Source: Puniceicoccaceae bacterium
GTDB taxonomy: Bacteria; Verrucomicrobiota; Verrucomicrobiia; Opitutales; Oceanipulchritudinaceae
DNA: 64,000 nucleotides
Reading direction: 5' to 3'
Assembly (NCBI GenBank): GCA_040830765.1
Contig: JBFOMH010000017.1
Location: forward strand, 1-64,000
In this document: positions 12,566 through 53,410 of the stretch, piece by piece
Numbering within the stretch: the first letter of the stretch is position 1
Layout: each line of letters starts with the position of its first letter
Program-made: the position numbers and the translations under genes
Notes under the pieces: generated by a model
Databases searched by the model: none
What the model was told of the DNA's origin: nothing
Seen by the model: the letters and a program-made list of their open reading frames with translations, nothing else

Positions 12566-12658
<93 letters not shown>

Positions 12659-12726
12659 TATCTGTCATTAACCTGTTGATGAACAGTAAGTTGCGTGATT
12701 TGAACGACTTAATTCGTGACAACACG

Positions 12727-12761
12727 CACGACAAAACACGACAAAACATGACAAAAGTGGC
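12727..12761 (+). repeat. Tandem CACGACAAAA x3 + GTGGC; inverted copy at 37455-37487
   Basis: 12729-12761 matches the reverse complement of 37455-37487 at 32/33 nt. Confidence 0.9.
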
Positions 12762-12768
12762 GCGTTTT

Positions 12769-12813
12769 GCCTTGATTATGCCTCGACTGGCATTGACTGG
12801 ATCTTGAACGGGG
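12769..12813 (+). repeat. 45-bp direct repeat, copy 1 (copy 2 at 14464-14508)
   Basis: gccttgattatgcctcgactggcattgactggatcttgaacgggg; 40/45 identity to copy 2. Confidence 0.88.
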
Positions 12814-12881
12814 ACGGTTTTATTCCGGGATAGATCTCAAAGGATTGTGTTTTTTCTTACGCCTGTTTTCCTGGCAAAGGC

Positions 12882-13733: not shown

Positions 13734-13748
13734 TTTCCAGATAAGGCT

Positions 13749-14402: not shown

Positions 14403-14420
14403 AACAAGAAAGTCACAACA

Positions 14421-14460
14421 AGGTGGGGCCCTTGGTAAACCGGTCTGTTTGAGAGACATC
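14421..14460 (+). repeat. Non-coding site homologous to 37545-37585
   Basis: aggtgggg-cccttggtaaaccggtctgtttgagagacatc vs aggtagggtccctcagaagaccggtcgatttaagagacatc; 32/41. Confidence 0.75.
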
Positions 14461-14463
14461 AAA

Positions 14464-14508
14464 GCCTTGATTATACCTCGACTGACCTTGACTGGATTTT
14501 GACCGGGG
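14464..14508 (+). repeat. 45-bp direct repeat, copy 2
   Basis: gccttgattatacctcgactgaccttgactggattttgaccgggg. Confidence 0.88.
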
Positions 14509-14645
14509 GCAGGCCTGAACGAATTTCAAAATCCATTTGTTTAAAATCGGGTTAGGATTGCGTAAACAATATAGAATACTATTTCTTCACCTAATCCGCA
14601 TTTTTACCCAACCATATACTGCTGGAATTAGGTCCTCACTGATAA

Positions 14646-17219: not shown

Positions 17220-17261
17220 TGATATATGATTGGTTGCTCACTCTGGTAGAGTGTAGTTACC

Positions 17262-18446: not shown

Positions 18447-18517
18447 TCTTGAAACCAATTTTTGAAATTCTACAGAAAGCGCTGGCGCTTATCCAATTCG
18501 CTTGTTGAAATGACTTT

Positions 18518-19486
18518 ATGACGGACGTTGTATTAGGTGATTTGGAGAGAGTTTCTTTGCGCGATGTTTGGGCAGATGAGGCCGCTAGTTTCACTCCTTG
18601 GTTAGCAAAAGCTGAAAACTTGAAGCGACTTGGAAACACCCTTGGAATGGAACTTGAAACCGAGGATAAGGAAGTTGCTGTCGGACCCTTTTCAGCAGAT
18701 ATTTTATGCAAAGATACCATCGATGGCAGCTGGGTTGTTATTGAAAACCAGATTGAGAAGACAGATCATCGTCATCTTGGACAGATTTTGACTTATGCGG
18801 CTGGTCTAGATGCAAAAACAATGGTTTGGGTAGCGGCTAATTTCACTGATGAACACCGGGCAGCATTGGATTGGCTAAATGAAAATACCGATGACAAAAT
18901 TTCCTTCTTCGGCTTGGAAATTGAGGTGTGGAAAATTGGTAATTCCGTACCTGCACCAAAATTTAATATTGTCAGCAAACCAAACGATTGGTCTAAAGCA
19001 GTTAAGGGCCGAACATCAGGAGGTGGCGATAAGATTTCTCCACACAAGCAACTGCAATTTGAGTTTTGGACAGCATTCAGATCCTATGTGGAGGAAAATT
19101 CTAAACTAAAGCCGCAGAAGCCAGGTTTTCAACATTGGCTTACCCTTTCGATCGGGCGATCAGGATTTGTGATTTACGCGATTATTTCCTCATGGAATTC
19201 AATTACCGAAAAATCAGATCCTGAAGTACGCGTTGAGTTTGTTATGCTTTCTCCTGATGCGAAAAAACAGATGGAACAGTTGCTCATCCAAAAGGAGGTA
19301 TTGCAGGAAAAAATCGACCTGCCTCTCGTTTGGCACAATCCTGAGAATTCAAAGTCCTGTAAGATATTCATCAGAAGAGACGGCGATTTTACTAATCGAG
19401 ATAATTGGAATGAGCTTTTTGAATGGCTGTTGGCTTACATGAAAAAGTTTGACCATGTTTTTCGTCCCATAGTGAAGAAATTGTAG
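18518..19486 (+). CDS. DUF4268-domain protein with N-terminal NucS-like nuclease
   Basis: FTPWLA, ADILCKD..VIENQ..TDHRHLGQILTYAAG; EFWTAF C-terminal domain. Confidence 0.8.
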   Translation: MTDVVLGDLERVSLRDVWADEAASFTPWLAKAENLKRLGNTLGMELETEDKEVAVGPFSADILCKDTIDGSWVVIENQIEKTDHRHLGQILTYAAGLDAKTMVWVAANFTDEHRAALDWLNENTDDKISFFGLEIEVWKIGNSVPAPKFNIVSKPNDWSKAVKGRTSGGGDKISPHKQLQFEFWTAFRSYVEENSKLKPQKPGFQHWLTLSIGRSGFVIYAIISSWNSITEKSDPEVRVEFVMLSPDAKKQMEQLLIQKEVLQEKIDLPLVWHNPENSKSCKIFIRRDGDFTNRDNWNELFEWLLAYMKKFDHVFRPIVKKL

Positions 19487-19572
19487 AAACTCTTTCGAGT
19501 GCTGGAATCTTATATGCAATATTTCTATAAAGAAGATTGCGAGTCCTGCTGACACTATCCTACTATTATGTC

Positions 19573-20715
19573 ATGGAAGTGAATGCACATTTTCGTGAAG
19601 GGAGGAAGAAGCAATGGGAAGCTCGTTGGTGGGTAAATCGTAAGCCACGTAGCAGATTTTTCGCTACAGAAAAGGAGCGCAATAAGTTTATTCGGGAGTT
19701 CAACAAAGAAATTTCCCAGCACGGTTCTGAGGTCTTTCAGTTCAACAAGGCGGTAGCTCGTCGCTGGCAGATCGTGTCTGAAATTCTTCCTGAGGTGGAT
19801 CCAGTTGAGATGGCTGAGTTTTGGTTAGCAAATCATTCCACGAAGGAACAGAGGACTTTTTCGGAGGCTATTCAGTCCTACCTGTTGGAAATGCAAAAGG
19901 CTGGTCGTGACAAGGAGTATCAAAAACATACGTTACGTGCGCTTGACCGCTTTGCCGCGAAGCATGGTGAAAAAACCCTGGCGGATATCACGAGTCAGGA
20001 GATTTCTGAATTCATCCATGACCTGCCATTTCAAGCGCTGACAAAGAATCACTACCGGACCTATCTCGTTGGTGCATTCAAATGGTTTATCAGTCAGGAA
20101 TGGATACACTCAAATCCTGCTTCTACAGTGCCCGCTCCTAAAGTGCATTTGGTTGAACCAGGCATTCTTACCATAGCAGAAACTGAATCACTATTCAGGG
20201 AAAACGAAAAGCTTGATCCAGGGATCTGTGGTTTACTGGCCCTTGGGGCTTTCGCTGGCATGCGTTCTTCTGCTATCAGTCGTCTCGCCTGGGATGAGTT
20301 GGATTTCAAAAATCGGACGATTCTCACACCGGCTTCCAAGACCAAAAAAGGCAGACGACACTTCATCGAGGATTTGCCAGACAACCTCTGGGAGTGGCTT
20401 GAGCGGACACCAAAGAAGGCATTCAAGATGACTCCCAGGCAATTTTCCTACCGCCGGGAGGCTGCATTCGCCCGTGCGGGTCTACTTGTTACAAAGGCTG
20501 CCGCAAAGGCAAGCAAGGGTAACTTGAATACGAAGGCCCCACCCAAAAACTGCCTTCGGCATTCCTTCGTTAGCTATCATGTCGCATTACACAGGGATCC
20601 TGGAAAAACCGCACTCCTGATCAGTCACAAGGATCAGGCAATTTTATGGGATCACTACCTCGGAGTGGCCAAGAGGGAGGATGCAAGCCGGTATTTCAGT
20701 CTTTCACCACAATGA
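19573..20715 (+). CDS. Tyrosine recombinase/integrase 2, paralogue of integrase 1
   Basis: FAGMRSSAI, KTKK, NCLRHSF, SH, DHY; ATG 19573 preferred over TTG 19537. Confidence 0.9.
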   Translation: MEVNAHFREGRKKQWEARWWVNRKPRSRFFATEKERNKFIREFNKEISQHGSEVFQFNKAVARRWQIVSEILPEVDPVEMAEFWLANHSTKEQRTFSEAIQSYLLEMQKAGRDKEYQKHTLRALDRFAAKHGEKTLADITSQEISEFIHDLPFQALTKNHYRTYLVGAFKWFISQEWIHSNPASTVPAPKVHLVEPGILTIAETESLFRENEKLDPGICGLLALGAFAGMRSSAISRLAWDELDFKNRTILTPASKTKKGRRHFIEDLPDNLWEWLERTPKKAFKMTPRQFSYRREAAFARAGLLVTKAAAKASKGNLNTKAPPKNCLRHSFVSYHVALHRDPGKTALLISHKDQAILWDHYLGVAKREDASRYFSLSPQ

Positions 20716-23679
20716 CTATGCAGTCCTCTTTTCGTCAGAGTCGTAGGTTACCCCGAATATAGTATCCCCAAGCCACTTTTTGAAAGAGGGGTTGTCACTG
20801 AACTGCTTGAAGAGCTCCGTATGGTCGGCAAGGAGTTCGATCATAACCCGCTGGAGCGCTTTGTCATGTTCGATCCGCGCATTCTGCTTATCTGAATGCT
20901 TCATTGCGTTCTGATATGCTTGGTCCGCCTTCACCTTTGCAGGAATTTCCTCAGCGATAACCATTCGAATCTTGTCAGCATCCTTCCAGTCGATGTTCCC
21001 AAACTGGTCGTTGAATGCCCGGATGATATTGCTCAACTGGTCGAGTTCTGGTTCAGGCTTGCGACCGCCTCCGCTGGTCGGAACAGGACCGACTTCGGCG
21101 TCCTCATCGGATAACGTGATTTCTGAGCTAGACTTAACTTCGACGCGATAACTATCCATATCAATTGCCTCAAGAATACCCTTCGCCAGATCTTCTTCCT
21201 TCGGAGCAGGAAGTTTTGGGATGAGAAAGTTGAGGAAGATGGATAGTTTTTTCCATTCGACGTTCGCAAATGGAAGGATAGAAGAAAGGAAACCATAAGT
21301 TCGCACAAAGGCCTTTGCCTTGCCCTTGAAATCCACCTGCCCATCTTCGTCGAGATCGACGGTGTACGTCGCCACGCAACTGTCGAGAATGGGATCCAGC
21401 TTATCTCGGTCTTCTCCGTTCAGGTAAAGCTTTACCAAACTATCAACTTGGCCTGCCGAATAGACCTGATAACCGTCGAGGTCGGCCTTCAAATCGTGCA
21501 GCTTGTTGGGATCAGTTTCCTCGCTAAGCACCGTAGTACGGTAGTAGGGATCAAAGGCCTTCTGGATGGTTTCAGCGTCGTTGTAGAAATCCAAAACAAA
21601 GCAGTCGTGCTTCTTAGGGTGTGCCCGATTCAGTCTTGAAAGGGTTTGCACTGCTTTTATGCCCGATAGAGCCTTATCTACATACATTGTGTGCAGTAGA
21701 GGCTCGTCGTAGCCAGTTTGGTATTTGTCAGCCACGATAAGAAAACGGTAGGGCTCGCTTACGATCTTATCTGTGATAGTGCTGCTTGGGAATCCGTTGA
21801 GGGAGCCTTCGGTCACTTTAGCCCCGCCGAACTCATACTCGCCCGAAAAGGCTACAATCGCTTTATTAGGACTTTTGCGTTCGTTCAGGTAAGTATTGAA
21901 AGCATGAAAATACTGGATGGCACGCTCGATCCCGTTGGTGATGATCATGGCACGTGCTTCACCACCAATTTTGCGCTGTGCCAACACCTGATCTTGGAAG
22001 TGGTCGATCATGATCTCCGTTTTCTCGCGTATTGCGTAGTCATGGGATTCGACGTATCGACGAAGTTTTTTCTGCGCTTTCTTGGAATCGTAAAGTGGGT
22101 CATCCTCCACTGTTTTAGCAAGCCGATAGTAGCTATCGACTGGCGTGTAGTGTTTCAGTACGTCCAGAATGAAGCCTTCCTGAATGGCTTGCTTCATAGT
22201 GTAGCTATGGAAGGGCTCATACTTGACCTTCCCATCCACCTCGGGATTGGGTTCACCGAAGATTTCAAGTGTTTTGTTCTTCGGAGTCGCGGTGAAGGCG
22301 AAATAACTGGCATTTTGGAGCATCTTTTCGGATTCGATGATACGGTTAACTTTGTCCTCGATGCTCTCCTCCTCCTGTTCCGATCCGTAGGCTCCAGGAT
22401 CCTCTAGTGCCATGTTCATGGCCGCAGCGGTTTTGCCTCCCTGGCTTGAATGTGCTTCATCGATAATGATCCCGAATTTCCGACCCCTGTGCTCGGTGCC
22501 TATTTCACTCAACACAAAGGGGAATTTCTGGACCGTAGTGATTATGATCTTTTTACCCGCCTTTAGGAAGCGACGAAGATCACCCGAACGTTCGGCGTGA
22601 CCAACTGTTGCCGACACTTGTGCGAACTGCTTGATCGTATCTCGGATTTGCTTGTCGAGTACTCGGCGGTCTGTGACGACGATGACCGAATCAAAAATAT
22701 GGCGTCTCTCCTGTTCCAGCCCGACCAGCTGGTGCGCCAGCCAAGCTATGGAATTACTTTTGCCACTTCCTGCCGAATGCTGGATGAGGTAGCGCTTGCC
22801 GCTGCCCCTCGATTGCGCGTCGGCTAGGAGTTTCCGAACGACGATCAGTTGGTGGTAGCGGGGGAAAATCTGCTTGTGCTTCTTCCGGCCCGTCTTTTCA
22901 TCCCGCTCCTCGACGACCTGTGCATAATTTTCCAGAATATCAGTTAGGCGTGGTTTGGTGAGTACTTCCTTCCAAAGGTAATCCGTTGCTAGCCCGGCGG
23001 GATTTGGTGGATTACCTGCTCCGTCATTGTGCCCCTTGTTGAAGGGCAGAAACCAGGATGCCTTGCCTTTGAGATGGGTGCACATCCTGACCTCGTGGTC
23101 ATCCACGGCAAAATGCACCATACAGCGGCCAAATTGGAAGAGCAGTTCCTTCTCGTCGCGGTCGCGCTTGTATTGTTGGACGGCGTCCTCGACGGTTTGC
23201 TTAGTCAGCTTGTTCTTCAGTTCAAAGGTTGCTACGGGCAAGCCGTTGATGAAAATTGCCAGATCCAGGGACAGTTTGGTTTCCGCCCGACTGTAGTGTA
23301 ACTGGCGGGTCACGCTAAAGATGTTGGCTGCATGGTTAGCCTCTGCCTTTGTATTGCCGGGTGTGGGTGTACCAAAGAAGCAATCAATACTCGTTGGGCC
23401 ATGCTTTATGCCCCGACGTAGGACATCGATCACCCCGCGCTTGGCGATCTCTCCCTGAAGGCGGTGGAGGAACTTCGTTCGCCTTGGACCTTCTGTTTCT
23501 ATGTCAAGAGCCTCCAATTCCTCTGGTTGGGTCGATTGTAGGAAGGCGAGGAGCTTGGGCCACTCAACCGCATGTTCCCTGTCGTAATCTTCTGGATTAC
23601 CCTGCACGTAACCCGCATTTGTTACCAGCGAGGCGACGATAAGGCTTTCCAATCCGTGTTCTGTAGTATCCGTTGGCAT
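20716..23679 (-). CDS. hsdR: Type I restriction enzyme R subunit
   Basis: DLAIFINGLPVATFELK, SAGSGKS, DEAH, TATP, QTLSRLNR. Confidence 0.95.
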   Translation of the reverse strand: MPTDTTEHGLESLIVASLVTNAGYVQGNPEDYDREHAVEWPKLLAFLQSTQPEELEALDIETEGPRRTKFLHRLQGEIAKRGVIDVLRRGIKHGPTSIDCFFGTPTPGNTKAEANHAANIFSVTRQLHYSRAETKLSLDLAIFINGLPVATFELKNKLTKQTVEDAVQQYKRDRDEKELLFQFGRCMVHFAVDDHEVRMCTHLKGKASWFLPFNKGHNDGAGNPPNPAGLATDYLWKEVLTKPRLTDILENYAQVVEERDEKTGRKKHKQIFPRYHQLIVVRKLLADAQSRGSGKRYLIQHSAGSGKSNSIAWLAHQLVGLEQERRHIFDSVIVVTDRRVLDKQIRDTIKQFAQVSATVGHAERSGDLRRFLKAGKKIIITTVQKFPFVLSEIGTEHRGRKFGIIIDEAHSSQGGKTAAAMNMALEDPGAYGSEQEEESIEDKVNRIIESEKMLQNASYFAFTATPKNKTLEIFGEPNPEVDGKVKYEPFHSYTMKQAIQEGFILDVLKHYTPVDSYYRLAKTVEDDPLYDSKKAQKKLRRYVESHDYAIREKTEIMIDHFQDQVLAQRKIGGEARAMIITNGIERAIQYFHAFNTYLNERKSPNKAIVAFSGEYEFGGAKVTEGSLNGFPSSTITDKIVSEPYRFLIVADKYQTGYDEPLLHTMYVDKALSGIKAVQTLSRLNRAHPKKHDCFVLDFYNDAETIQKAFDPYYRTTVLSEETDPNKLHDLKADLDGYQVYSAGQVDSLVKLYLNGEDRDKLDPILDSCVATYTVDLDEDGQVDFKGKAKAFVRTYGFLSSILPFANVEWKKLSIFLNFLIPKLPAPKEEDLAKGILEAIDMDSYRVEVKSSSEITLSDEDAEVGPVPTSGGGRKPEPELDQLSNIIRAFNDQFGNIDWKDADKIRMVIAEEIPAKVKADQAYQNAMKHSDKQNARIEHDKALQRVMIELLADHTELFKQFSDNPSFKKWLGDTIFGVTYDSDEKRTA

Positions 23680-23690
23680 CGGCTGCAGGA

Positions 23691-24548
23691 TTAAGCTAAT
23701 CCTTCCTTGTCGTGCTCTTTGATCTTCCCTGCAATAGCCTCAGCAAAGTCATCTGCTTCATCTTCTCGGATTATTTCGTGTGCCACGGGCGTCTTGTGGA
23801 GAATGTTCAGTGCCCTATCGAACGCTGCTTTGCTGCGCTCAAGTTGTGGTTGTCCGACGAGATAGTAAACTTTAAACCTTTCCGAGGCGTTTTGAACCCG
23901 CATGACACGGCCCAGCCACAAACTAGCTTTATCCGTGATGCTCTGTGCCTGCTGCAAATCGAAGGAGACACTCTCCAAACAATGCCACTGCTTATTCTTC
24001 CAGGAGTGGCTGAACTCAATCTCATCGTCTTTAACTGAGATCGTTTTGGGCGCGAACCGTGAAAGAATTTTCCGTTCCTCAAACTCCTTTTTAAAGCTCT
24101 TCCAGATTTCATCATCAGTCCGGCTCACTACTTCCTTTTTGTCTTCGTACCGTTCAACCATTCGTTCAAAAAGACTTTCCAAGGTTGCTGCCGGGTCATG
24201 AGTAAGCCCGCTGCCGAGAGGGGACCACTGAAAGGAGCTATCGTCAGCCGCGATAGCGGTGAAAGCCAGTTCGTCCGCACGTTGTGGCATTCCTTGAAGC
24301 TTCAATTCTTCACGAAACCGTCCGGCAAGGTCACTGAAACGGACCTGAAGGTGTCGGATGACCGTGCGGTAGTGATCCCCATCAAGACCGTGAAACATTT
24401 TTGAGAGTCGGCTATACTTTGGGCTGAGAAGAGCGTCGGCATAACGAAGTTCGGGGCACAGCAACACCACGCCAACGTTGGCGAACTCGCCGGTCGTGGT
24501 ATCGTGGACATACCGCAGAATGGTATAGGTATAGGGTTGCTTATTCAT
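23691..24548 (-). CDS. DUF3037-domain protein
   Basis: YTILRYVHD..GEFANVGVVL N-terminus; coupled to the kinase gene. Confidence 0.8.
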   Translation of the reverse strand: MNKQPYTYTILRYVHDTTTGEFANVGVVLLCPELRYADALLSPKYSRLSKMFHGLDGDHYRTVIRHLQVRFSDLAGRFREELKLQGMPQRADELAFTAIAADDSSFQWSPLGSGLTHDPAATLESLFERMVERYEDKKEVVSRTDDEIWKSFKKEFEERKILSRFAPKTISVKDDEIEFSHSWKNKQWHCLESVSFDLQQAQSITDKASLWLGRVMRVQNASERFKVYYLVGQPQLERSKAAFDRALNILHKTPVAHEIIREDEADDFAEAIAGKIKEHDKEGLA

Positions 24549-25333
24549 AGGAGGACCTCCAATTGTGTTTTAATTGTGTCAAATTTATCGATGCATTCGA
24601 GCAGATAATCTCGAATGCCTGTGGGCGAAAATGTCGAGCTTTGCCATCCAGCTGGAATTGCTGCGATATAGGCATCAAGCCGCTCCTTCGTGATTGCTTC
24701 AAGAGCTCCCTGGAGACGATTCAGGTCCAGGCCTCCACCGTTAAGTACTCGGCGAAAAACGTGGTCGTTCAGAAATTTCAATGCTTCGGCATCCCAAGGA
24801 TTGGAAGGAAAGATAGTAAGAAACTGCGAAAACGCCGACTCATGATCGAATATCACGAAGTCATTTCCCAGGAAGGCACAGTTCGGATTGGATGCTCTTC
24901 TGTCGGGATTTTGGATTATGGCGTCAAAGGCGAGTATCTCACCTGCCGTCGGCCTCATGGCTTTGTTCAAAGTCTTGTCGCGTGGCCAAAGGGTCGTGCC
25001 TGGTTCCCATTTGGCCAACCCGAAATTCCATCCAACGCTTCCGACGAGGAAGGGACGGTATTCTGTTTGTGCTACCGTTGCAGCGAAACCTTGGGTCACC
25101 TCCACTCGGTAGGGCTGGGGGACGGGAAGATCGAGGTCCTGGGCAAGTAGCGCGGAAAAGGCTTCACATAGGAGCTTGAACGGTTGCATCTCAGGGCAGC
25201 CTGTCAGCTTCACAAGCAACTCCATTTCATTTCCTTCCCCATCTTCACAGGCAAGAAAACAAGGGCGTGTCCGACCCGATCCCATGACTTTGTCGAAGCG
25301 TGTAGCAATTACGGTTGGCATTAAATCACTCAT
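24545..25333 (-). CDS. HipA-like Ser/Thr kinase
   Basis: GSGRTRP, LVK, CEAFS..LA, FDAIIQNPDRRASNPN, IFDHESAF. Confidence 0.82.
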   Translation of the reverse strand: MSDLMPTVIATRFDKVMGSGRTRPCFLACEDGEGNEMELLVKLTGCPEMQPFKLLCEAFSALLAQDLDLPVPQPYRVEVTQGFAATVAQTEYRPFLVGSVGWNFGLAKWEPGTTLWPRDKTLNKAMRPTAGEILAFDAIIQNPDRRASNPNCAFLGNDFVIFDHESAFSQFLTIFPSNPWDAEALKFLNDHVFRRVLNGGGLDLNRLQGALEAITKERLDAYIAAIPAGWQSSTFSPTGIRDYLLECIDKFDTIKTQLEVLL

Positions 25334-26772
25334 GCTTCGGCTTCCTCCAGTTCATGTTCGATGGGATTGAGGTCTTTTGGATCTTCATCAGCTGAGGTCG
25401 ATGCATCGCAAGCGGCGGACCAGTCACCCTCGGGTACGTCTATGCCGCGCACGTCCACTTGGCCAGTGACGACATCTGCTACCAGTCGGGTGCGGTATTC
25501 CGTGATCAGCTCGATCTCCCGCTCTGCGCGTGCAATGGCCGCGTCAATTGTAGACGTCTTCATGGCGATGTGTGTAAGTATGGTGCGTTGCTCGTCGAGG
25601 GGTGGGAGCGGAATCCATAGATTCCAAATAACACCTTGTCCGATGTTTTGCATGGAGCTGCTTGCCCCGTTCGCAGACGATTCAATTTGAACACGACTTC
25701 CTTTGCTACGGATGGCAAGAACTATGAATTGTGGAATTGCTAAATCGGGGTTTGCTCTGAATCTGAACAATTTATCACAAAGTAGAATATTCGGTGCATT
25801 TTCAAGTGCCCTGGCCGCAAGTCCGAGAAGCTCACGAGTATTTGCTCGGCTCACAAGTATATCGTCTGTGGTTATTGCCAAAGACTTGTCCACTTTCGCT
25901 TCTAGCGAAACAGGAAGTTTCTTGTTCTGGGTCAGATCTAATACACCCGAATTCACGCACCCCACCTTTAGGACACCAAACTCCTCTCCAGTGGCAGGCT
26001 GCGCGTCACATTGCGGGGACCATCCCTGCTCGATTGGTGTGATGACTCTCTTTAACTTGATAGCTTCCCAATTTTCAGGGATATTTCCGAGCCACTCGAT
26101 GCCGGAGGGTTTGGTGGAGGCGTGGGGATCTAGTCCGCGTACGATTGCTTGGTGGATAAGGTTTTGCTTCTGTTCCTTGAGCAGGGAGATCAGTTGCCGT
26201 TTGTTGCTGATGAAGGTACCGATTTGCGATGTTTTCCAGTCCAGATATCGCGCAATTTGCTTCTGCTCAGCCAAGGGCGGAACACAAATCCCTATCAAGC
26301 GGAAATGCTCGGGGCGTAAGCTCCACATATCAGAAGTAATCCCATAAGACCAACGCTCGGCCTCCTTGGCGAAACTCGGGGTCCGAAAGAAATAGTGAAA
26401 ATACCGAGGGTGATTACCTCCCCGCAAACGCATAACTATGTAGGCGGGACTTATGATTCCACGAAATTTTGATACACCTAAGGCGCCCTGCCAAGCCCTC
26501 ATTTTATTATACGCCAAGTCCTCGGGCAAAACGAGTTTGTATTTTGTTTTATCGAGGTTCGAAGAATCCTTCTTCGATGTATCTGAGAGCAATTCGGATT
26601 GTTGGATGATGCCCCGGTTGATGGTAACTGAAAGCAACTGTTCTTCCGGGTGGTTCTGATCAACTATTTCGCGGAATACTGCACGATTGGGAACAGATCT
26701 CCAATGGCTCGGAATTTTCCCAAGCCAGGGTGTGCCGGATTTCTGATAGCTGGGATATCTAGGAAGAATCAT
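25330..26772 (-). CDS. hsdS: Type I R-M specificity subunit
   Basis: SGTPWLGKIPSHW / SGIEWLGNIPENW repeats, PPLAEQ / PPLDEQ, VVTGQVDVR. Confidence 0.95.
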   Translation of the reverse strand: MILPRYPSYQKSGTPWLGKIPSHWRSVPNRAVFREIVDQNHPEEQLLSVTINRGIIQQSELLSDTSKKDSSNLDKTKYKLVLPEDLAYNKMRAWQGALGVSKFRGIISPAYIVMRLRGGNHPRYFHYFFRTPSFAKEAERWSYGITSDMWSLRPEHFRLIGICVPPLAEQKQIARYLDWKTSQIGTFISNKRQLISLLKEQKQNLIHQAIVRGLDPHASTKPSGIEWLGNIPENWEAIKLKRVITPIEQGWSPQCDAQPATGEEFGVLKVGCVNSGVLDLTQNKKLPVSLEAKVDKSLAITTDDILVSRANTRELLGLAARALENAPNILLCDKLFRFRANPDLAIPQFIVLAIRSKGSRVQIESSANGASSSMQNIGQGVIWNLWIPLPPLDEQRTILTHIAMKTSTIDAAIARAEREIELITEYRTRLVADVVTGQVDVRGIDVPEGDWSAACDASTSADEDPKDLNPIEHELEEAEA

Positions 26773-27577
26773 GTGGTATGCCCTCCCACGCCCGTTTTAA
26801 CGCAGCCATCCAGTTTCCGGTGGAGCAGTGAGATCATCGTAAGATAGTCCGCCGCATCATCCTCGCCGCTCCAAAGAATCTTCGGGCCATGAGCCAAGGG
26901 GTTGCGGACCGCCCCGAAACAGCCCTTCAGCAGCATGGCAAAGCCCTTGTGCTCGGATTGCTCTGTCTCCGTTCGAAGGGTATTGAAGGCAAGTATCGGA
27001 CTGCTTATTGAGAAGACCTTGTCGACTAAGGTAGCACCGTCGCCTTCGACGCCGGCAAGCTCACGAATTCGTTGTGCCAATCCCTTGGTCGCCTCGAACA
27101 CGGCATGAAAATAGTTTTCCTGCATCAGTTCGGCACGGCAATATTTTAGCACCTCCGGATGCAATATTCTCCCGGAAAACTTTTTCCGAATAGTTCTAAC
27201 TCTCTGCTCGGCCTCATCGAGCGTGGTCGCAGCCGCTGTTTGCGTGAACTTGCCATTTGATCCATAATTCAATCCGACGAAGGCGAGAATAGTATTTAGT
27301 TTTTTGCGGTGTGCTTCAAATTCTTCAGCCCGACCAGCGAACCGTGCTGGTGTGAGAAAGGATTGGATGAAGTCTATGACTTTATTCGCACAATGATGAT
27401 CTTTTTGAGTTTGGAGAAAAACCCGGTACAGACGACGCCACTTAGTGGACTCGCCACTATTATCGACCAGGCCTCTATTCTCTAGAACACGGCTGATATC
27501 AGTCCCCGAACCGCATTCACCGAGAACCTTGGCCAGCCCTTCGATAGTTCCCTCGTTAAATGATTCGATGAGACTCA

Positions 27578-27578
<1 letters not shown>
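26769..27578 (-). CDS. TIGR02391 (Ymh-like) family protein
   Basis: LHPEV..NYFHAVFEATK, SEHKGF..GAVRNPLAH. Confidence 0.8.
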
Positions 27579-29704
<2,126 letters not shown>

Positions 29705-43080: not shown

Positions 43081-43103
43081 TTGACACTCACTCCTCGCAC
43101 ATG
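43081..43103 (+). promoter_or_regulatory. First copy of the late-gene element TTGACA-N13/14-(A/G)TG (12 sites, see findings)
   Basis: ttgaca-ctcactcctcgcac-atg; recurs at 45669, 46391, 49577, 49858, 51272, 51941, 52850, 53467, 56027, 57532, 60970. Confidence 0.85.
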
Positions 43104-43751
43104 AGTGAAACTGAATCAGTGAAAGCCAAGGGCCTGGCCGATGGAATTGAAGTATGGTGTGGTTATGAAAAGCTGGTTCCGGTTGAGGATTTAAAGGCCA
43201 ATCCGCGTAATCCGAATACGCACCCGGTCCGCCAAATTGAACTGCTCGCCAAGAATATTCGATATTTTGGATGGCGCCACCCGATTTCTGTTTCCAGGCG
43301 AAGCGGATTGATTGTGGCCGGCCATGGCAGATTGGAAGCGGCCAAGCATTTGAACCTGCAGCTGGTGCCTGTGGATTATCAGAACTTCGCGAGCGAGAAT
43401 GATGAAATGGCGGTATTGATTGCCGACAACCGTTTGGCAGAACTTGCCAGTGTGGATCTCAATTCACTTGAAGGCGTGATCAACGATTTGAAGGTGGAGG
43501 GATTTGATACGCTGCTGACCGGTTTTGAAGACGCCGATTTGGACAGCCTGCTTTCGCCGGACAATTCAAATGAGGTGCTGGAGGAAGAAGATGGAGAGCT
43601 GGAGAAAGGCGACGTCACGATCACTTTGGGTTTGTATCGTTGGAAGGTCAGCCAGGAGGATTACCTCGCTTGGATTGATTCGGTGAAGCAGGAAGTCGGC
43701 TTCGATAAGGAATCGGTGATGAGGGAATTGAGAAAGCGACTGGGTGTATGA
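43101..43751 (+). CDS. ParB/Srx N-terminal domain protein
   Basis: NPRNPNTHP, FGWRHPI, IVAGHGRLEAA, IADNRLAE. Confidence 0.88.
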   Translation: MSETESVKAKGLADGIEVWCGYEKLVPVEDLKANPRNPNTHPVRQIELLAKNIRYFGWRHPISVSRRSGLIVAGHGRLEAAKHLNLQLVPVDYQNFASENDEMAVLIADNRLAELASVDLNSLEGVINDLKVEGFDTLLTGFEDADLDSLLSPDNSNEVLEEEDGELEKGDVTITLGLYRWKVSQEDYLAWIDSVKQEVGFDKESVMRELRKRLGV

Positions 43752-45259
43752 TCAAGCTTGAGCCATTAGAAGCTGTCGCCCCGTCGACCTACAATCCGCG
43801 CAGCGCGGATCCTCAGCGTCTGGACCTGATTGAGCTTTCGTTAAGGAAACTTGGATTTCTGGCTCCGATCTTTGCCGACGAAAATGGGGAGATTCTTTCC
43901 GGTCACCAGCGACATCTCGTCGCCACCCGGATGGGAGCGAAGCATCTACCGGTATTCCGTACCCGCCCCATGGGGCTCCCTCAAAGAAAGGCGCTGAACA
44001 TCGTTTTCAACCGGGCAACCAATGACTTTGATTGGAACAGTACACCGGAGAAATCCACCCGGGAACTTGCATCACTGGATGTGCATCGCCTTGCGGAATC
44101 GATTTCCGATAAGGCTGTGGATTCCCCCGAATTTATCCGCTGTCTGACTCCGAATCAGGTGAGTGTGAAGGAGCTCTGCCGGACCAATTCCGGAAAGTGG
44201 AAGCAGTATGCGAAGAATCTGGCGAAGACCCTGCATCGAAACGGAATTCTCATGCCGATTATCTGCAAGAGAGATGGTACGGTGATCAATGGTATCGGGC
44301 GCCTTGAAATGCTCGCTGAAAAGAAGATCGAGAATGCTCCTGTCGTATATGTATCGGAAGAGGAGGCAGCTTTCGCAGAAGCGATGATGAACCTGCTTTC
44401 CATGGATTTCGATGTTGAGAGCCGCTATGATGATCTTCTGCGGTATAATTCATTCAGGCGTGCCCGCCGGGTGCGGGAGGAACTGGGCAATGGATTCATA
44501 TTCGCTGTCCACGGGGCAAAGCCTTGCTACACATTTGATATTTTCAATCCGAAGCAGAAGGCAAAGTGGCTGAGGGAACACGGTAATCGCATACTTGATT
44601 TCGGTGCCGGGCACTTGACGGAGACCAAGATTCTCCGCCGGGCGGGAATGGAAGTGTGTGCCTTTGAACCCTATCATATTACGCGATCGGATATTGATAA
44701 GGAGAAGAGTCTTGAGATATGCAGGGAGTTTATTGAAGCAGTTCGAGAAGGCAGAGAGTGGACTTCCATCTTTCTGGCCAGTGTCTTGAACTCGGTACCG
44801 TTCCAGACGGATCGGGAACACATTGCGGTGCTCCTGCAGGCGCTTTGCAGACCGGAAACAAAAGTCTATGCCTGTGCTTCGAGTGTGAGTGAAACCGGTT
44901 GGAGGCAGGTGAATGGGAAGGCATTTTTAAACAAGTCCAATTCAGCGAACATCGCATTCCGGTTGGATTATGAAACGGGAATCAGGATTGGTGATTTCCA
45001 GGACAAGCCGAAGGTGCAGAAGTACCATACGATAAAAGAATTCCATCAGCTATGGACTCCGTTTTTCCGCTCTGTTAGGGTGCGTGAAATGAGTAATAAC
45101 ATTACCGCTACATGCGCACATGCACTACCTGTCGATAAGGAACGGTTGAGGGCGGCAATTGAATTTGAATTTGATCTACCGTATCCGGATGGAACCCGGA
45201 TGGATATGGTTGAGGAAGCAATCGAAGCATTTGAAAAACGATTGGGTGTTAAACTGTGA
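43748..45259 (+). CDS. Double ParB-domain protein fused to a Rossmann methyltransferase-like domain
   Basis: YNPR..GFLAPI..ILSGHQR; second GILMPII..VINGIGR; ILDFGAGH, AFEPY, LASVLNSVPF. Confidence 0.75.
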   Translation: MIKLEPLEAVAPSTYNPRSADPQRLDLIELSLRKLGFLAPIFADENGEILSGHQRHLVATRMGAKHLPVFRTRPMGLPQRKALNIVFNRATNDFDWNSTPEKSTRELASLDVHRLAESISDKAVDSPEFIRCLTPNQVSVKELCRTNSGKWKQYAKNLAKTLHRNGILMPIICKRDGTVINGIGRLEMLAEKKIENAPVVYVSEEEAAFAEAMMNLLSMDFDVESRYDDLLRYNSFRRARRVREELGNGFIFAVHGAKPCYTFDIFNPKQKAKWLREHGNRILDFGAGHLTETKILRRAGMEVCAFEPYHITRSDIDKEKSLEICREFIEAVREGREWTSIFLASVLNSVPFQTDREHIAVLLQALCRPETKVYACASSVSETGWRQVNGKAFLNKSNSANIAFRLDYETGIRIGDFQDKPKVQKYHTIKEFHQLWTPFFRSVRVREMSNNITATCAHALPVDKERLRAAIEFEFDLPYPDGTRMDMVEEAIEAFEKRLGVKL

Positions 45260-45672
45260 TATATCTATTGGATTTAAACTACACGCTGGTTGGGAATTCC
45301 CCAAGAAGGGGAGATCCACCTATCCGGCCATTCATCAGGCAGATCGAGCAAGAAGAGTACCGCCAGTGGTTGGTTGAACTATTGAGGCCTCACAAGGTGA
45401 TTTTAATTACCGCCCGACCGGACCGGTACAGGGAAGTGACCTTGGAGCGTATAAAGGAAAAGACGGGCTGGGAACCGGTGGATGCTTACTTCGCACAAAT
45501 ACAGGCACGACCTCCCCAGATTAAGGAGCACCTTTTGAAAACGCACATCTTCCCAAAGTATGGGAATAATGGATACTTTGCACTTGAGAGTAATCCGTAC
45601 ACTAGGGAGATGTATAAAGGATATGGCATAGAGGCGGTCCGGGTGACGGATCAGGAACTGATGAAATGTTGA
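45256..45672 (+). CDS. HAD-like (PNKP-type) phosphatase-fold protein
   Basis: LLDLNYTLV, LITARP, K, ALESN; degenerate motifs I and IV. Confidence 0.6.
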   Translation: MIYLLDLNYTLVGNSPRRGDPPIRPFIRQIEQEEYRQWLVELLRPHKVILITARPDRYREVTLERIKEKTGWEPVDAYFAQIQARPPQIKEHLLKTHIFPKYGNNGYFALESNPYTREMYKGYGIEAVRVTDQELMKC

Positions 45673-45688
45673 CACTGACTTAACCGGC

Positions 45689-46384
45689 ATGGACGCCGGA
45701 CAGGGGATCGAGACATCGCGCAGCAACTGGGTATTCGACGAAAAGGTCGCACCGAAGTTTGATGAGCATGTGAGAAAAAGCGTTCCCGACTATGATCGGA
45801 TCCAGGATCTGGCAGCAAGTCTTTCTGACTGGTTTGTGAAGGACGGAGGAACCGTTGTGGATCTGGGGGCATCAACCGGTGAAACACTTCATCGCATTCA
45901 AAAACGCAACCCGGCAAAGAAGATCGAGGTTATTGGTTACGACAATTCCAGTGCGATGATCCAGCAGGCGAAGGCAAAGGGAGTGGATGTGCATTTTTGC
46001 GATCTCTCCATGCTTACTGAAATGCGGGGTCACGATTACGGGGTATCGCTCTACACGCTCCAATTTCTGCGCCCGGGAGCCAAGCAGACGGTGCTTTCAG
46101 TATGCTATGATTCATTGAAGCGGGGCGGGGGATTTTTCGTTGTTGAGAAAGTCCATGGAAGCATTCCGGAATTCCAGGACATCACCCAGCAGCTGTACTG
46201 GGAAATGAAACTTGAAAATGGCCTTACACCAAAGGAAGTCCTGAACAAGGCGGCCGCATTGAGGGGCAATATGTTCCCCATGACAGTGGCGGAGAATGAG
46301 GCACTTTTCAGGCGCGTCGGCTTCGTTCGGTATGAGCTTGTATACCGCCATCTGCAATTTGCCGGTTGGCTCCTAATGAAGTAG
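45689..46384 (+). CDS. CmoA-like (carboxy-SAM synthase family) SAM-dependent enzyme
   Basis: WVFDEKVA.KFDEHVRKSVPDY, DLGASTG, DNS..M, YTLQFL, VEK, MKLENG..EV.NK. Confidence 0.8.
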   Translation: MDAGQGIETSRSNWVFDEKVAPKFDEHVRKSVPDYDRIQDLAASLSDWFVKDGGTVVDLGASTGETLHRIQKRNPAKKIEVIGYDNSSAMIQQAKAKGVDVHFCDLSMLTEMRGHDYGVSLYTLQFLRPGAKQTVLSVCYDSLKRGGGFFVVEKVHGSIPEFQDITQQLYWEMKLENGLTPKEVLNKAAALRGNMFPMTVAENEALFRRVGFVRYELVYRHLQFAGWLLMK

Positions 46385-49876: not shown

Positions 49877-51322
49877 GTGAAGATCCTCCAAAGCATTGGC
49901 AAAGTTCTAATGGGTTCATCCTATGAGGCGGCAAATCCATCAATTCGCCGTTCAAGGGTGCCTGGTGCCGCGCCGTCCGATGCAAGAAGGGAGTTGACGG
50001 CCCATACCCGCCGCGAACTGGTACGCAAAAGCAGATACCTGAACAAGAACAGTGGTTTCTCTCGCGAGGTCGTGGGGGACATGGCGATTTATTCGACCGG
50101 AGATGGAATCCGTCCCCAGGCACAAACAGCGGATCCAGCATGGAACAGGCAGGCGGAGGAATTTTTCAAACGGTGGTCCGCACGTCCCGAAGTGACCAAC
50201 CGGTTCTCATTCGAGGAATGCCAGAATCTGGTTTGCCGGGGAATCGATGTGGACGGGGAATATTTTGTATTGAAAATTCGCGACAAGTTCGGACGTGCCC
50301 GGATACAGTTGGTGGAATCCCACAGGATAGGATCGGCTTCTGAGGATAGAAAGGTGATCGATGGTATTGAATTTGATGCGATAGGAGCGCCGTTTGCTTA
50401 TCATCTTATCCAGGACAATGGAAAGCCTCGGAAGGTGTTCGCCAATGCGGTGATGCATGTCTTTGAACCGGAGTTTGCAAGTGGTGCGCGAAGTCACCCG
50501 ACTTTGCAGCATTCCATCAACCACATTCTCGATGAAATGGAGATGCTTGCGTTGGAAAAGCATGCGGTGAAGGATAATCAGGATGTTTCACGGATCATTA
50601 AGCGCGAAAGCGGAACTTTGGAGGATGATGGAGATTTTAGAGTATCGCCGGATACAGGTGAAGCAGCTGACCAGAGTGATCCGTCCGCTATCCAGAGAAT
50701 CACAGGAGGCAAGGTCCTGGCATTGAAGCCGGGAGAGTCCATGGACAGTTTTCAGTCGAACAGGCCAAGCTCCATGTTCACCGGATTTCTGGAGCACTTG
50801 AAGCGGGACAGCAGCGCCGGGGTACTCCCCTATGAATTTGTACTGGATTCATCCAGTGTGGGTGGTGCCGGAGTACGCTTGATTGTAGCGAAGGCAGACC
50901 GTCGCTTTTCCTACCGGCAACTAATCCTCATCCAGCGATTCCTCAAACCAACATGGGGCTGGGTGATTGGTGATGCCATTGATAGGGGAGAGTTGGAACC
51001 GATGAAGGGTTGGAACAAGGTGACCTGGGTTACTCCACGCCGCATCACGGTCGATGCAGGCCGGGAGGCAGAATCCCACCGGAAAGATGTGGAGATGGGC
51101 CTACTCACATTTTCGGATCATTTCTCAGAGATTGGAATGGATTTTCGCGAAGAAATTGAGCGTAGGGCACAGGATTCAAGAGACATATTGGATATGGCAA
51201 ACCGATATGGTGTACCCGTGGATATGCTCTATCGCCCAAGTGGGACGAAAAGTACTCCTGCTCAGGAACCTTTGACATCGGACGGGGGCAGTGCCCCACA
51301 AAGATCCGAAGAAGAAAGCTGA
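49877..51322 (+). CDS. Portal protein, lambda gpB family
   Basis: RELVRKSRYL..N, DGEYF, DGIEFD..G.P..YH, LKPGE; GTG 49877 chosen from the upstream motif. Confidence 0.9.
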   Translation: MKILQSIGKVLMGSSYEAANPSIRRSRVPGAAPSDARRELTAHTRRELVRKSRYLNKNSGFSREVVGDMAIYSTGDGIRPQAQTADPAWNRQAEEFFKRWSARPEVTNRFSFEECQNLVCRGIDVDGEYFVLKIRDKFGRARIQLVESHRIGSASEDRKVIDGIEFDAIGAPFAYHLIQDNGKPRKVFANAVMHVFEPEFASGARSHPTLQHSINHILDEMEMLALEKHAVKDNQDVSRIIKRESGTLEDDGDFRVSPDTGEAADQSDPSAIQRITGGKVLALKPGESMDSFQSNRPSSMFTGFLEHLKRDSSAGVLPYEFVLDSSSVGGAGVRLIVAKADRRFSYRQLILIQRFLKPTWGWVIGDAIDRGELEPMKGWNKVTWVTPRRITVDAGREAESHRKDVEMGLLTFSDHFSEIGMDFREEIERRAQDSRDILDMANRYGVPVDMLYRPSGTKSTPAQEPLTSDGGSAPQRSEEES

Positions 51323-51944
51323 ATACAACCGCCGCTACTACCAAGAAAACCGGGAGCGGCTTAAGGAACATGCACGTAAATATTACCACGATAATATTGA
51401 TGCTCAAAAAATTGTTAGAAAACAATGGCGAGAGGCCAACAAAGACAAAGTTAAAGCTTCAAACAAAGCATACCAGCGAGAGCAAAAGCAAAAAATACGA
51501 GAATATCAACAGGGTCGGAAGAATGATCCTGAGGTCATTGCAAAACGCCGAAATCAAAAGCGTCGATACTATCAACAGCGAATTCAAAGAGATCCACAAT
51601 GGCGGGTAGTTCGTGCTCTTCGTCTTCGACTTTGGACTGCGCTTAAGCAGCGTAAAATAGACAAGTCAGAATCCAGCCTCGAACTTGTTGGATGCGAAAT
51701 CAGTGCCCTCGTCAGACACATTGAAAACCTGTTTCAGCCAGGAATGTCTTGGGAAAATTACGGATCAAAAGGCTGGCATATTGACCACATTACTCCCTGC
51801 GCTGCCTTCGATCTTAGTGATCCAGCACAACAGAAGAAATGTTTCCATTACACGAACCTGCAACCTCTATGGGCGAGAGACAATATAGTTAAAGGGCATA
51901 GTCTTCCCACATCGCTTTCTGAAGCAGTCGTCCCACCCGGTTGA
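51291..51944 (+). CDS. HNH-type endonuclease, homing-endonuclease-like
   Basis: Basic repetitive N-terminus; GMSWENYG..WHIDHI.P..CFHYTNLQPLW..N..K. Confidence 0.85.
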   Translation: MPHKDPKKKAEYNRRYYQENRERLKEHARKYYHDNIDAQKIVRKQWREANKDKVKASNKAYQREQKQKIREYQQGRKNDPEVIAKRRNQKRRYYQQRIQRDPQWRVVRALRLRLWTALKQRKIDKSESSLELVGCEISALVRHIENLFQPGMSWENYGSKGWHIDHITPCAAFDLSDPAQQKKCFHYTNLQPLWARDNIVKGHSLPTSLSEAVVPPG

Positions 51945-51965
51945 CAGAGTCCAGTTTCAACAAAC

Positions 51966-52035
51966 ACGAGGGAGAAAAGGATTCGGTCGGGCTCATAACC
52001 CGGCAACGCAGGTTCGATTCCTGCCCCTCGTCCCA
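51966..52035 (+). tRNA. Atypical tRNA-Met(CAT), initiator-like anticodon arm, miniature D-arm
   Basis: ACGAGGG/CCCTCGT acceptor stem, TCGGG-CTCATAA-CCCGG, GCAGG-TTCGATT-CCTGC, C73 then CCA. Confidence 0.85.
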
Positions 52036-52044
52036 ATTATAGCC

Positions 52045-52866
52045 ATGAGACTAGCACACATCACCAATACAATGTATCGGCAGCCCTGGAATATCACCAC
52101 CGATGGCTGGCTGTCGTTGCATCAGATTGTACAAAGCAGGTTGTTTAACGATGCCGTGAATCTGGATTTTTCAGATTTCGTAAATCCCCGCCCGGATGGT
52201 GAAATTGACGGTAATGGTATCGCTCATATCCATGTAATGGGTACTTTGGGGAAACACTTAAGCCAGATTGAGCGTTCCTGCGGCAACACCGGATATGAGC
52301 AAATAGAGGAGGAGATTCGTATAGCAAACGAAGACGGTGCAAAGGGATTCCTGTTTCATATCAATTCTCCGGGAGGAATGGCTGCCGGTAATATTGAGAT
52401 TTCCCGGATGCTTTCAGAAATCAAGAAACCAAAGGCTGTTTGGGTGGATGAACTGGCAGCCTCGGCAGCATATGCCATAGCCAGCGGTGCCGACATTATT
52501 GCGATGGCGCCATCGGCACAGGTCGGGAGCATAGGTACTATTCTTCCATTGGTTGATGTGTCCGGTGCATGGGAGCAGAGGGGATGGAAGCCCGCTTACA
52601 TCACCCATACCGGAGGAGATCTAAAGGATGCCACATGGCCTCCATCATTCACTGATGAGCACCGTGCCCACCTTCAGGAAATGGTGGACGATTATTTCGG
52701 ACAGTTTAAGGAACACGTCTTACAACACAGGAACATGGGACCGGATGCCATGCGCGGACAGACATTCATAGGTCGCAAGGCGAAGGAGGCGAATTTGGTG
52801 GACCATGTGGGCAGTCTGGAAGACACCTACGCGGAGCTCCTCAAGCGGGTTGACAAGGCAAAGTAG
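52045..52866 (+). CDS. S49 family prohead protease
   Basis: INSPGG, AASAAYAIAS, VGSIG. Confidence 0.92.
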   Translation: MRLAHITNTMYRQPWNITTDGWLSLHQIVQSRLFNDAVNLDFSDFVNPRPDGEIDGNGIAHIHVMGTLGKHLSQIERSCGNTGYEQIEEEIRIANEDGAKGFLFHINSPGGMAAGNIEISRMLSEIKKPKAVWVDELAASAAYAIASGADIIAMAPSAQVGSIGTILPLVDVSGAWEQRGWKPAYITHTGGDLKDATWPPSFTDEHRAHLQEMVDDYFGQFKEHVLQHRNMGPDAMRGQTFIGRKAKEANLVDHVGSLEDTYAELLKRVDKAK

Positions 52867-52868
52867 GC

Positions 52869-53381
52869 ATGGATTTTCCAAAAGCAGAAGAACTCAACAC
52901 ACTGGCACAGGCACGCGATGCATTTGCTTCCCTTCTCTCAGAACATGAAGCCTCCCGGGATAATCTTTCCCAGGCTTCAGAGGCTCTTGATAAGGCAAAT
53001 GCTGAACTGGATGCGGTGCGTGACGACCTGAAGGCGGCCAATGAAATGCTCGATGAGGCGAATACCAATATTGGTTCCCTGACCGGGAAGTTGAAAGAAT
53101 CCCAGGATAAGGAGCAGACTCTCAGTAATGAATTGAAAGTGGCCAAGGAGTTGAACCAGTCGGTTGAACAGAAGGTTTCCAAGCTGGAAGCAGATGCAAA
53201 GTCTGCTGAGGCTAAAGCGGCTGAAATCTGTGCTTCCGTTGGTGTGGAGCCTGCGCAGGTTACTCCGGGTGGGGAGCCTAAACAGCAGTCCCTGATTGAG
53301 CAATTGAAGGAGATCAAGAATCCTGCTGAACAAATGACTTTCTTTCGCAAGCACCGCGACGAGATCATTAAGGGGCATTAA
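52869..53381 (+). CDS. Probable coiled-coil scaffolding protein
   Basis: Heptad-rich; lies between protease and capsid genes. Confidence 0.6.
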   Translation: MDFPKAEELNTLAQARDAFASLLSEHEASRDNLSQASEALDKANAELDAVRDDLKAANEMLDEANTNIGSLTGKLKESQDKEQTLSNELKVAKELNQSVEQKVSKLEADAKSAEAKAAEICASVGVEPAQVTPGGEPKQQSLIEQLKEIKNPAEQMTFFRKHRDEIIKGH

Positions 53382-53410
53382 TATATTAAGAGGTTTGTGT
53401 GTATATAATC

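Follow-up and report, generated by a model that had tools for sequence, protein, structure and literature searches.

The tRNA and its locus

The window, i.e. the whole stretch of 64,000 nucleotides (nt) of contig JBFOMH010000017.1 that was analysed (Puniceicoccaceae bacterium, assembly GCA_040830765.1), carries a 70-nt transfer RNA (tRNA) with a CAU anticodon in the head module of a lambda-like prophage. The module comprises terminase, portal, an endonuclease VII-like gene, an S49 protease, a scaffold-like gene and the major head protein, and the tRNA is placed directly ahead of the protease gene (Table 1). This tRNA(CAU) is real and under selection. The features listed in the initial annotation, made from the sequence alone, are all present (acceptor, anticodon and T arms, C73, an encoded CCA, and 14 nt between the acceptor and the canonical anticodon stem), as is the 9-nt distance between the CCA, which ends at 52035, and the protease ATG at 52045. 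ARAGORN predicts tRNA-Met(CAT) at 51966-52035 and Rfam RF00005 assigns the element to the tRNA family with 39.9 bits (gathering threshold 29), so that the check with these two tools, which had been proposed, recovers tRNA-Met and tRNA, respectively.

The cloverleaf has an energy of -27.5 kcal/mol, versus -27.6 kcal/mol for the minimum free energy fold; the fold z-score of the window tRNA, taken alone, is modest (-1.9). The three G-C pairs of the anticodon stem noted initially (29-41, 30-40 and 31-39) are all found, but the stem reaches 6 base pairs (bp) and is followed by a 3-nt variable loop, which corrects the earlier description. A single connector base is present also between the D stem and the anticodon stem, and the canonical combination of a 4-bp D stem with a 5-bp anticodon stem is absent. 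In place of the C1xA72 mismatch and A73 of tRNA-fMet, the window tRNA has A1-U72 and C73, and the host initiator also departs from these two features. The gene is most like an initiator yet lacks three textbook features of this class, and is an initiator-derived variant, not a plain member of tRNA-fMet.

Table 1. Positions of the tRNA, its parts and the neighbouring genes in the window
Feature	Position	Strand	Remarks
TTGACA late motif	51941..51946	+	T-TGA overlaps the upstream nuclease gene's stop codon; RNA 5' end predicted ~19 nt past the first base of the motif (~51960)
Predicted precursor leader	51960..51965	+	5-6 nt; putative RNase P substrate; sequence unconserved
Compact initiator-derived tRNA-Met(CAU)	51966..52035	+	70 nt; ARAGORN, Rfam, covariation
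Acceptor stem	51966-72/52025-31	+	7 bp, A1-U72, then one connector base; read from sequence
D stem	51974-76/51982-84	+	GAA/TTC stem; 5-nt GG loop
Anticodon stem	51986-91/51999-52004	+	6 bp; anticodon 51994-96; 7-nt loop CUCAUAA
T arm	52008-24	+	preceded by 3-nt variable loop; C73 at 52032, encoded CCA 52033-35
U-rich trailer/spacer	52036..52044	+	9 nt, no Shine-Dalgarno sequence; resembles host initiator 3' trailers; predicted RNase E site
Lambda-family portal	49877..51322	+	PF05136, phrog_21; probable start GTG 49877, 19 nt after TTGACA 49858
Optional endonuclease VII/HNH-like gene	51291..51944	+	phrog_1035 E 5.5e-08; own TTGACA-N13-GTG
S49 prohead (head maturation) protease	52045..52866	+	273 amino acids; PF01343 E 1.3e-25; phrog_53 E 4.1e-56
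Scaffold-like coiled-coil gene	52869-53381	+	scaffold role suggested by position; own TTGACA-N13-ATG
Major head protein	up to 54391	+	probable start 53486; own TTGACA-N13-ATG

The family and its structural types

The tRNA is kept in a prophage family of Verrucomicrobia, with close relatives in Oceanipulchritudo and Opitutales. ARAGORN calls it in 10 of 14 protease-homologous loci, and wider searches gave 16 distinct elements from 17 loci, which belong to four structural types. Type A (11 elements, including that of the window) is marked by the pairs C2-G71/G3-C70. In type B (L046) the acceptor resembles that of the host and carries A1-U72. Type C (L512, L519, L521) is 68 nt long, with C1xA72 and a D stem that is nearly gone. 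In type D (L013) the D arm is complete and the anticodon stem damaged. The trees calculated for these loci were quick trees, with rows filtered by identity and coverage and with L021 left out of the protease tree (short match), and no order of events is claimed from them.

In the alignment of the 11 type A copies, which supplies the covariation check called for in the initial annotation, 98.2% of the cells pair and 5 of the 20 pairs are changed on both sides. This level was reached by none of 500 shuffles, in a test that is inflated by the relatedness of the copies. The sixth anticodon-stem pair is kept in 8 of the 11. Mean pairwise identity over 55 pairs is 94.7% for the acceptor and T arm, 49% for third codon positions and 38% for the 18 nt after TTGACA. 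The unconstrained decay in homologues that would mark a pseudogene, part of the outcome named in advance as fatal to a functional tRNA, is contradicted by this covariation, by the conservation and by the invariant anticodon.

The sequence U33-C34-A35-U36 is present in all 16 elements, G29-C41 in 15 and G30-C40 in 15 (G.U in the remaining one); C73 is found in 15 and the CCA is in place in 14. The pairs G29-C41 and G30-C40 are those contacted by G1338/A1339 of 16S rRNA in the P site (PMC11497404; cited, like the other papers below, from excerpts). The purine-pyrimidine pair 11-24, whose role in initiator tRNA is described in PMC9976931, is of the initiator type A-U in 10 of the 11 type A copies and G-C in the other, the numbering being by analogy in a shortened arm. 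The G2-C71/C3-G70 pairs, minor determinants for Fmt (PMC9976931), are absent from all 11 type A copies and present in 5 other elements. Pair 31-39 is G-C in only 10 of 16 elements, bases 32, 37 and 38 vary (base 37 is A in 10 of 16), and so does the D arm. From this pattern, selection appears to keep what a charged P-site tRNA needs, in favour of the explanation preferred below.

As for compact copies elsewhere, the only matches of model R1 with at least 80 bits in 101 genomes are 6 protease-linked ones, the very sequences on which it was trained; the next matches score 51 bits, and 25 loci taken from the weaker matches are ordinary host initiator genes. All 6 matches of a pattern scan are on contigs already found via the protease. 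A scan for TTGACA plus anticodon gave at least 12 tRNA calls among 80 of 120 loci. The same top half also occurs outside the family, in unrelated phage loci (21 of 27 matches).

Two observations were made on unrelated phages. One of them (L327:1236-1304) encodes a 69-nt tRNA-Met(CAU) with a tiny D arm, a similar C2-G71/G3-C70 acceptor and an ordinary sigma-70-like promoter, a likeness that is possibly convergent. Contigs L401, L408, L411-L415, L418, L419 and L424 share the T arm and the acceptor 3' strand; the middles of these elements are aberrant and uncalled by ARAGORN, and several of them are located just upstream of a P-loop ATPase gene.

Relation to the host initiator tRNA

The assembly has a single initiator gene (contig C21), with U1-A72, C73, A4-U69 and A29-U41. 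The related host initiators used for comparison (25 loci, L433-L457, one misparsed at its 3' end) are the top weak matches of model R1. U1-A72 together with C73 is found in 24 of the 25 and A1-U72 in the remaining one. Paired 1-72 and C73 are thus inherited in the phage tRNA, because the host-type initiator gene already has both; the initial annotation had judged A1-U72 and C73 by E. coli rules that the host initiators themselves do not follow, and the two features are no anomalies. A29-U41 is present in 25 of 25 parsed host initiators, i.e. they have only two G-C pairs, and the trailer is U-rich (at least 3 U within the first 6 nt) in 22 of 25, like the phage spacer. G29-C41 and G30-C40 occur together in 16 of 45 host tRNA calls. 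Both host Met tRNAs carry G2-C71/C3-G70, and the host encodes Fmt.

By sequence comparison, the phage gene is a captured Opitutales-type initiator gene plus trailer. It shares with the Opitutales initiator tRNA-fMet the CUCAUAA loop, G30-C40/G31-C39, A11-U24, the A4-U69 G5 G6 G7 acceptor, paired 1-72, C73, the encoded CCA and the U-rich trailer, and with some host copies the GCAGG/CCUGC T stem (an earlier label of "elongator-type T stem" was dropped, as the same stem occurs in some host initiators). Unlike the host gene it is 70 and not 77 nt long, with a D stem of 2-3 bp, one connector base, a 6-bp anticodon stem, a 3-nt variable loop, C2-G71/G3-C70, G57, and G29-C41 where the hosts have A29-U41; it is also placed under a late motif and runs into a protein gene. 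What truly sets the phage tRNA apart from the host initiator is the swap to C2-G71/G3-C70, the G29-C41 pair that it has gained and its shrunken core.

Two host genomes (L452, L456) contain several damaged initiator copies with a palindromic hairpin just 3' of the anticodon, and the type D phage tRNA (L013) has the same kind of hairpin insert. These inserts are possibly a miniature element aimed at initiator anticodon arms.

The TTGACA late motif

Between 43081 and 60970, an ATG or GTG that opens at least 50 codons follows TTGACA after 19-22 nt at 10 of 12 + strand sites, the two exceptions being the tRNA site and one intragenic site. TTGACA is invariant across 12 aligned loci, and no peak of ATG at 18-23 nt is seen at 1285 TTGACA sites outside the prophage. 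Ten late genes are predicted from this spacing to be leaderless.

The TTGACA at 51941 had been described as the tRNA's own; the motif is indeed there, but a sigma-70 promoter was rejected since no -10 box accompanies it and the word recurs gene by gene as a late motif. In host tRNA genes TTGAC-like words are found (by eye) ~40-47 nt upstream, versus 25 nt at the phage tRNA. In tRNA-less relatives the motif stands directly before the protease (24 of 209 distinct upstream regions in the protease search, 44 of 51 in the portal search), and the tRNA therefore lies between the protease's motif and its ATG. The initial remark that the protease has no TTGACA directly ahead holds solely for this reason.

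RNA contigs from public runs

The late region was found in seven public runs (X1-X7) from two studies, 4 recorded as RNA and 3 guessed to be RNA. The data are assembled contigs only, compared with no DNA control, and such contigs cannot reveal ends, strand or level. X1 gives a single contig (49569-53239) without differences to the window. The contigs of X3 (51986-52353, depth 20) and X5 (51985-52311, depth 6, adapter at the 5' end) run from the tRNA interior into the protease gene; both runs are guessed RNA of one study, and both contigs begin at the D-arm/anticodon junction. The X2 contig begins at 52157. These contigs hint weakly at an uncut joined tRNA-protease transcript. Among the contig starts listed for X2-X7 between 49.5 and 54.5 kb (X1 left out, runs not independent), 14 of 31 fall in the 55 nt that follow TTGACA+19 (6.7% expected) and the 55 nt ahead of it contain none, a weak hint that TTGACA+19 marks an RNA 5' end.

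A gap in the RNA contigs between the scaffold-like and capsid genes is present in 4 of 4 runs compared and, again with no DNA control, carries no weight as evidence. At the 3' end of the scaffold-like gene (53210-53393) the contig depth rises up to ~20,000 in X1, and contigs of five runs stop at 53372-53393; this segment is possibly a stable 3' fragment or a transcript end.

Coupling to the protease gene and other RNAs in the same slot

In 13 of the 16 elements, a spacer of 9-12 nt that lacks a Shine-Dalgarno sequence separates the end of the tRNA from the protease ATG; three (L046, L519, L521) are uncoupled from the protease. In L046 the protease, which belongs to another clade (35% identity, versus 69% for the portal), has a second TTGACA 26 nt ahead of it. 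In L519 (258 nt examined) and L521 (72 nt) other DNA follows the trailer, with an opposite-strand open frame in L519. The uncoupled copies favour action in trans, as a cis operator would always be joined to its start codon.

The slot can also hold RNAs that are not tRNAs. In L021/L520 a 108-nt multi-hairpin leader (L520:3902-4009; also in L522) fills the stretch between roughly TTGACA+19 and the ATG of the protease. Its identity is 95%, at saturated third codon positions (33% identity), and it is a candidate new RNA motif. Its last hairpin resembles the T stem of the compact tRNA. A different, 78-nt leader with three hairpins precedes the protease in L016/L203, its last stem reaching the A of the start codon, and L094, a near-identical sister of L016, has a bare TTGACA-N13-GTG. 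The L021 and L016 leaders gave nothing meaningful in Rfam. No further copies of the non-tRNA leader of type E were found in 401 genomes; of 16 matches to a pattern, judged by contig name only, 2 are on the known contigs. The two type E sequences show no covariation.

In the subclade of the window the anticodon loop sequence CUCAU is complementary to AUGAG (5 bp), which spans the start codon, and codon 2 of the protease is AGA in 8 of 8 genes, although just 3 of the Arg codons counted elsewhere in these genes are AGA. As a general mechanism an anticodon-AUG pseudoknot was rejected, since the extended pairing fails in L006/L007, L012, L184 and L013; AGA follows the ATG also in the tRNA-less L186.

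Other features of the prophage

The distance from the portal stop to the protease ATG is 722 nt in the window versus 67-115 nt in most tRNA-bearing relatives. The nuclease gene that fills it is absent from this position in most relatives and is thus not part of the element; a homing-nuclease link was discarded on the same ground. The portal-protease gap is a hot spot for inserts of 400-1200 nt (L518, L527, L535, L537, L554, L563, L567, L570, L572), which land upstream of the protease TTGACA, so that the protease stays leaderless. For the portal (49877) and for the major head protein (53486) the probable start is not that of the longest open reading frame (ORF).

Ahead of the terminase (43101-46384), under TTGACA motifs, are two ParB-like genes, a CmoA-like methyltransferase gene (TIGR00740 E 1e-34, below cut-off) and a gene without a family match that carries what we take to be a HAD-like motif, possibly a DNA or RNA modification module. 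A tRNA-Ser(GGA) gene at 12566, followed by two tyrosine-integrase-like genes, is the likely integration site, so the compact tRNA was discarded as an attachment-site remnant. No duplicate of the last 15-40 nt of tRNA-Ser(GGA) was found on contig C17, and the right prophage end was not located. The region 12566-29704 also holds a cluster that resembles, from its ORFs, a type I restriction-modification system.

Discussion

To the explanation that we favour we would give an even chance: the gene provides a late, processed, Met-charged extra initiator tRNA for the predicted leaderless phage mRNAs. Its starting points are the observed sequence, fold, conservation pattern, position and descent from the Opitutales initiator gene. 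Processing, charging, P-site use and benefit are inferred, and the likely course would be as follows. The late transcript would start near 51960, with the tRNA as the 5' part of the protease message; host RNase P would remove the leader of 5-6 nt, and host RNase E would cut within the U-rich trailer. The host has RNase P RNA, RNase E/G and a gene of the CCA-enzyme/poly(A) polymerase family, while RNase Z and RNase J were below the cut-offs in the host search. Methionyl-tRNA synthetase (MetRS) would charge the tRNA via CAU, the anticodon being sufficient for charging by MetRS in E. coli (PMC9976931). The charged tRNA would then enter the P site as an additional initiator, serving some ten leaderless late mRNAs, and the 3' cut would leave the protease with a leader of at most 9 nt, near the leaderless form of the tRNA-less relatives. 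Protease output would then be held back until processing, be it as a by-product or as an additional function.

A demand for an additional initiator is suggested by the ten leaderless-looking late genes, the one host initiator gene, and the dependence of leaderless translation on initiation factor 2 and its opposition by initiation factor 3 (IF3) (PMC4611024). Less inspection by IF3 on the leaderless route would fit the relaxed base 37, pair 31-39 and D arm. The initial annotation had offered a specialised initiator and, separately, processing to a near-leaderless protease mRNA; both fit the data and are partly supported, as what seem to be two sides of one mechanism.

Several points weigh against this explanation. 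Because the loci are related, the counts are less independent than they look, and the anticodons were located by the word TCAT, though the elements were found by position. The C2-G71/G3-C70 swap is found in 11 of 11 type A copies, and pair 1-72 is G-C in 3 of 11; both make formylation doubtful. A pyrimidine occupies position 37 in 6 of 16 elements and pair 31-39 is mismatched in 3 of 16, which is unusual in a decoding tRNA. The tRNA is dispensable, as 44 of 51 distinct portal-linked loci are without an insert. Only uncut RNA is seen, with no listed piece starting at 52036-52100, though a free mature 70-nt tRNA would escape such libraries, and 49569, where the long X1 contig begins, precedes a predicted start by 27 nt. 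Two lineages (L021/L520 and L016) fill the slot with non-tRNA hairpins, which suggests that the slot acts in cis.

The last point belongs to the strongest of the alternatives, which we still hold to be unlikely, namely that the element is mainly a cis-acting leader that throttles or delays the protease, remaining uncut until a slow cleavage and perhaps held by MetRS through the CAU loop, in the style of the thrS operator, or masking the AUG with its anticodon loop. MetRS can regulate an mRNA through an anticodon-like loop (PMC9976931). The short, Shine-Dalgarno-free spacing in the coupled elements, the joined RNA in X1, X3 and X5, the other leaders in the same slot, and, in the window subclade, the CUCAU/AUGAG complementarity with the otherwise rare AGA at codon 2 are all consistent with it. 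On the other side stand the failure of the extended pairing and the tRNA-less AGA described above, the equal predicted accessibility of the AUG with and without the leader (in a model without pseudoknots), and the persistence of the tRNA in the three uncoupled loci; moreover, a throttle needs neither the CCA nor G29-C41/G30-C40.

It is improbable that the tRNA serves late in infection against host toxins directed at initiator tRNA (VapC-type nucleases, tRNA acetyltransferases), be it as a decoy, which the initial annotation had also offered, or as a stand-in that resists cleavage. Phage tRNAs are often altered in the anticodon loop at nuclease sites (PMC10264068), positions 37, 38 and 31-39 vary here, and the host has 9 PIN-domain matches. 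These PIN proteins have no known target specificity, however, the window copy keeps the canonical CUCAUAA loop, and phages are described, in the excerpt of PMC10264068, as generally avoiding tRNA-fMet where VapC-LT2 targets it. A resistant stand-in would anyway act as in the favoured explanation.

Very unlikely is a tethered initiator mimic, in which the uncut tRNA domain would dock in the P site via G29-C41/G30-C40 and CAU would read the protease AUG in cis, 9 nt past the CCA and 13-14 nt past the acceptor stem. The intergenic-region internal ribosome entry sites (IRESs) of dicistroviruses act by such tRNA mimicry. The conserved P-site pairs, the short and nearly fixed spacer and the joined RNA would suit it; the conserved CCA and the uncoupled copies do not, a tRNA that is tethered and uncharged has no Met to donate, and by estimate the linker is at the limit of reach. 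If this were true, bacteria would offer a natural equivalent of the tRNA-mimicking IRES, and the L021/L520 and L016 leaders would be other solutions in the slot.

Equally hard to credit is an elongator tRNA-Met, or a lysidine tRNA-Ile2, supplementing late translation. Paired 1-72, the lost G2-C71/C3-G70 determinants and the G57 T loop point that way, against the kept G29-C41/G30-C40 and A11-U24. C4-G69 and C5-G68 are the TilS determinants of tRNA-Ile2; the host Ile2 has both C-G pairs, while the window tRNA has A4-U69 and G5-C68, like the host Met tRNAs. A pyrimidine at 37 would also be worst for A-site decoding. Finally, a decaying relic of the captured host gene can practically be set aside: the loss of the tRNA from the close relatives L003/L004, the damage in L013 and the odd loops of several lineages are outweighed by the compensatory changes, the invariant anticodon and an acceptor and T arm far better conserved than third codon positions and leader.

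Turning back to the extra initiator, its fold can be compared with known tRNAs. The D stem of tRNA-Pyl has four pairs, and that of the window tRNA is one shorter. The traits given for tRNA-Pyl (CUA anticodon, G73, no GG or T-loop motif) are not those of the window tRNA. Mammalian mitochondrial tRNA-Ser(UCN) (type I) and tRNA-Pyl, which are active L-shaped tRNAs, share with it one connector base, a small D loop, a 6-bp anticodon stem and a 3-nt variable loop, and the window tRNA also keeps, like tRNA-Ser(UCN), the GG and the T-loop motif (PMC7609411). With its CAU anticodon, C73 and separate origin, the resemblance is one of fold only. Like the phage tRNAs that counter host tRNA depletion (PMC10264068), it is a phage copy of a host tRNA, with the anticodon-loop flanks altered in several lineages; unlike them, it is a single gene in the head module of a temperate phage, with a non-canonical core, joined to a structural mRNA. 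The E. coli thrS tRNA-like operator (PMC9976931) is likewise an anticodon-bearing structure 5' of a start codon, but here a whole tRNA with acceptor and CCA is found, the gene downstream encodes a protease and not a synthetase, and uncoupled copies exist. A literature search, with most subscription journals outside it, gave no title describing such an element.

If the favoured explanation is true, the gene would represent a hitherto undescribed means by which a phage supplies its own translation, with a natural initiator of mitochondrial/Pyl-type shrunken core working on a bacterial ribosome, in a phage that apparently has leaderless late genes throughout. With its four structural types, in which base 37, pair 31-39, pair 1-72 and the D arm are varied, the family forms a natural series of mutants and lets one test directly which initiator features are needed by leaderless initiation, and why temperate phages carry single tRNAs.

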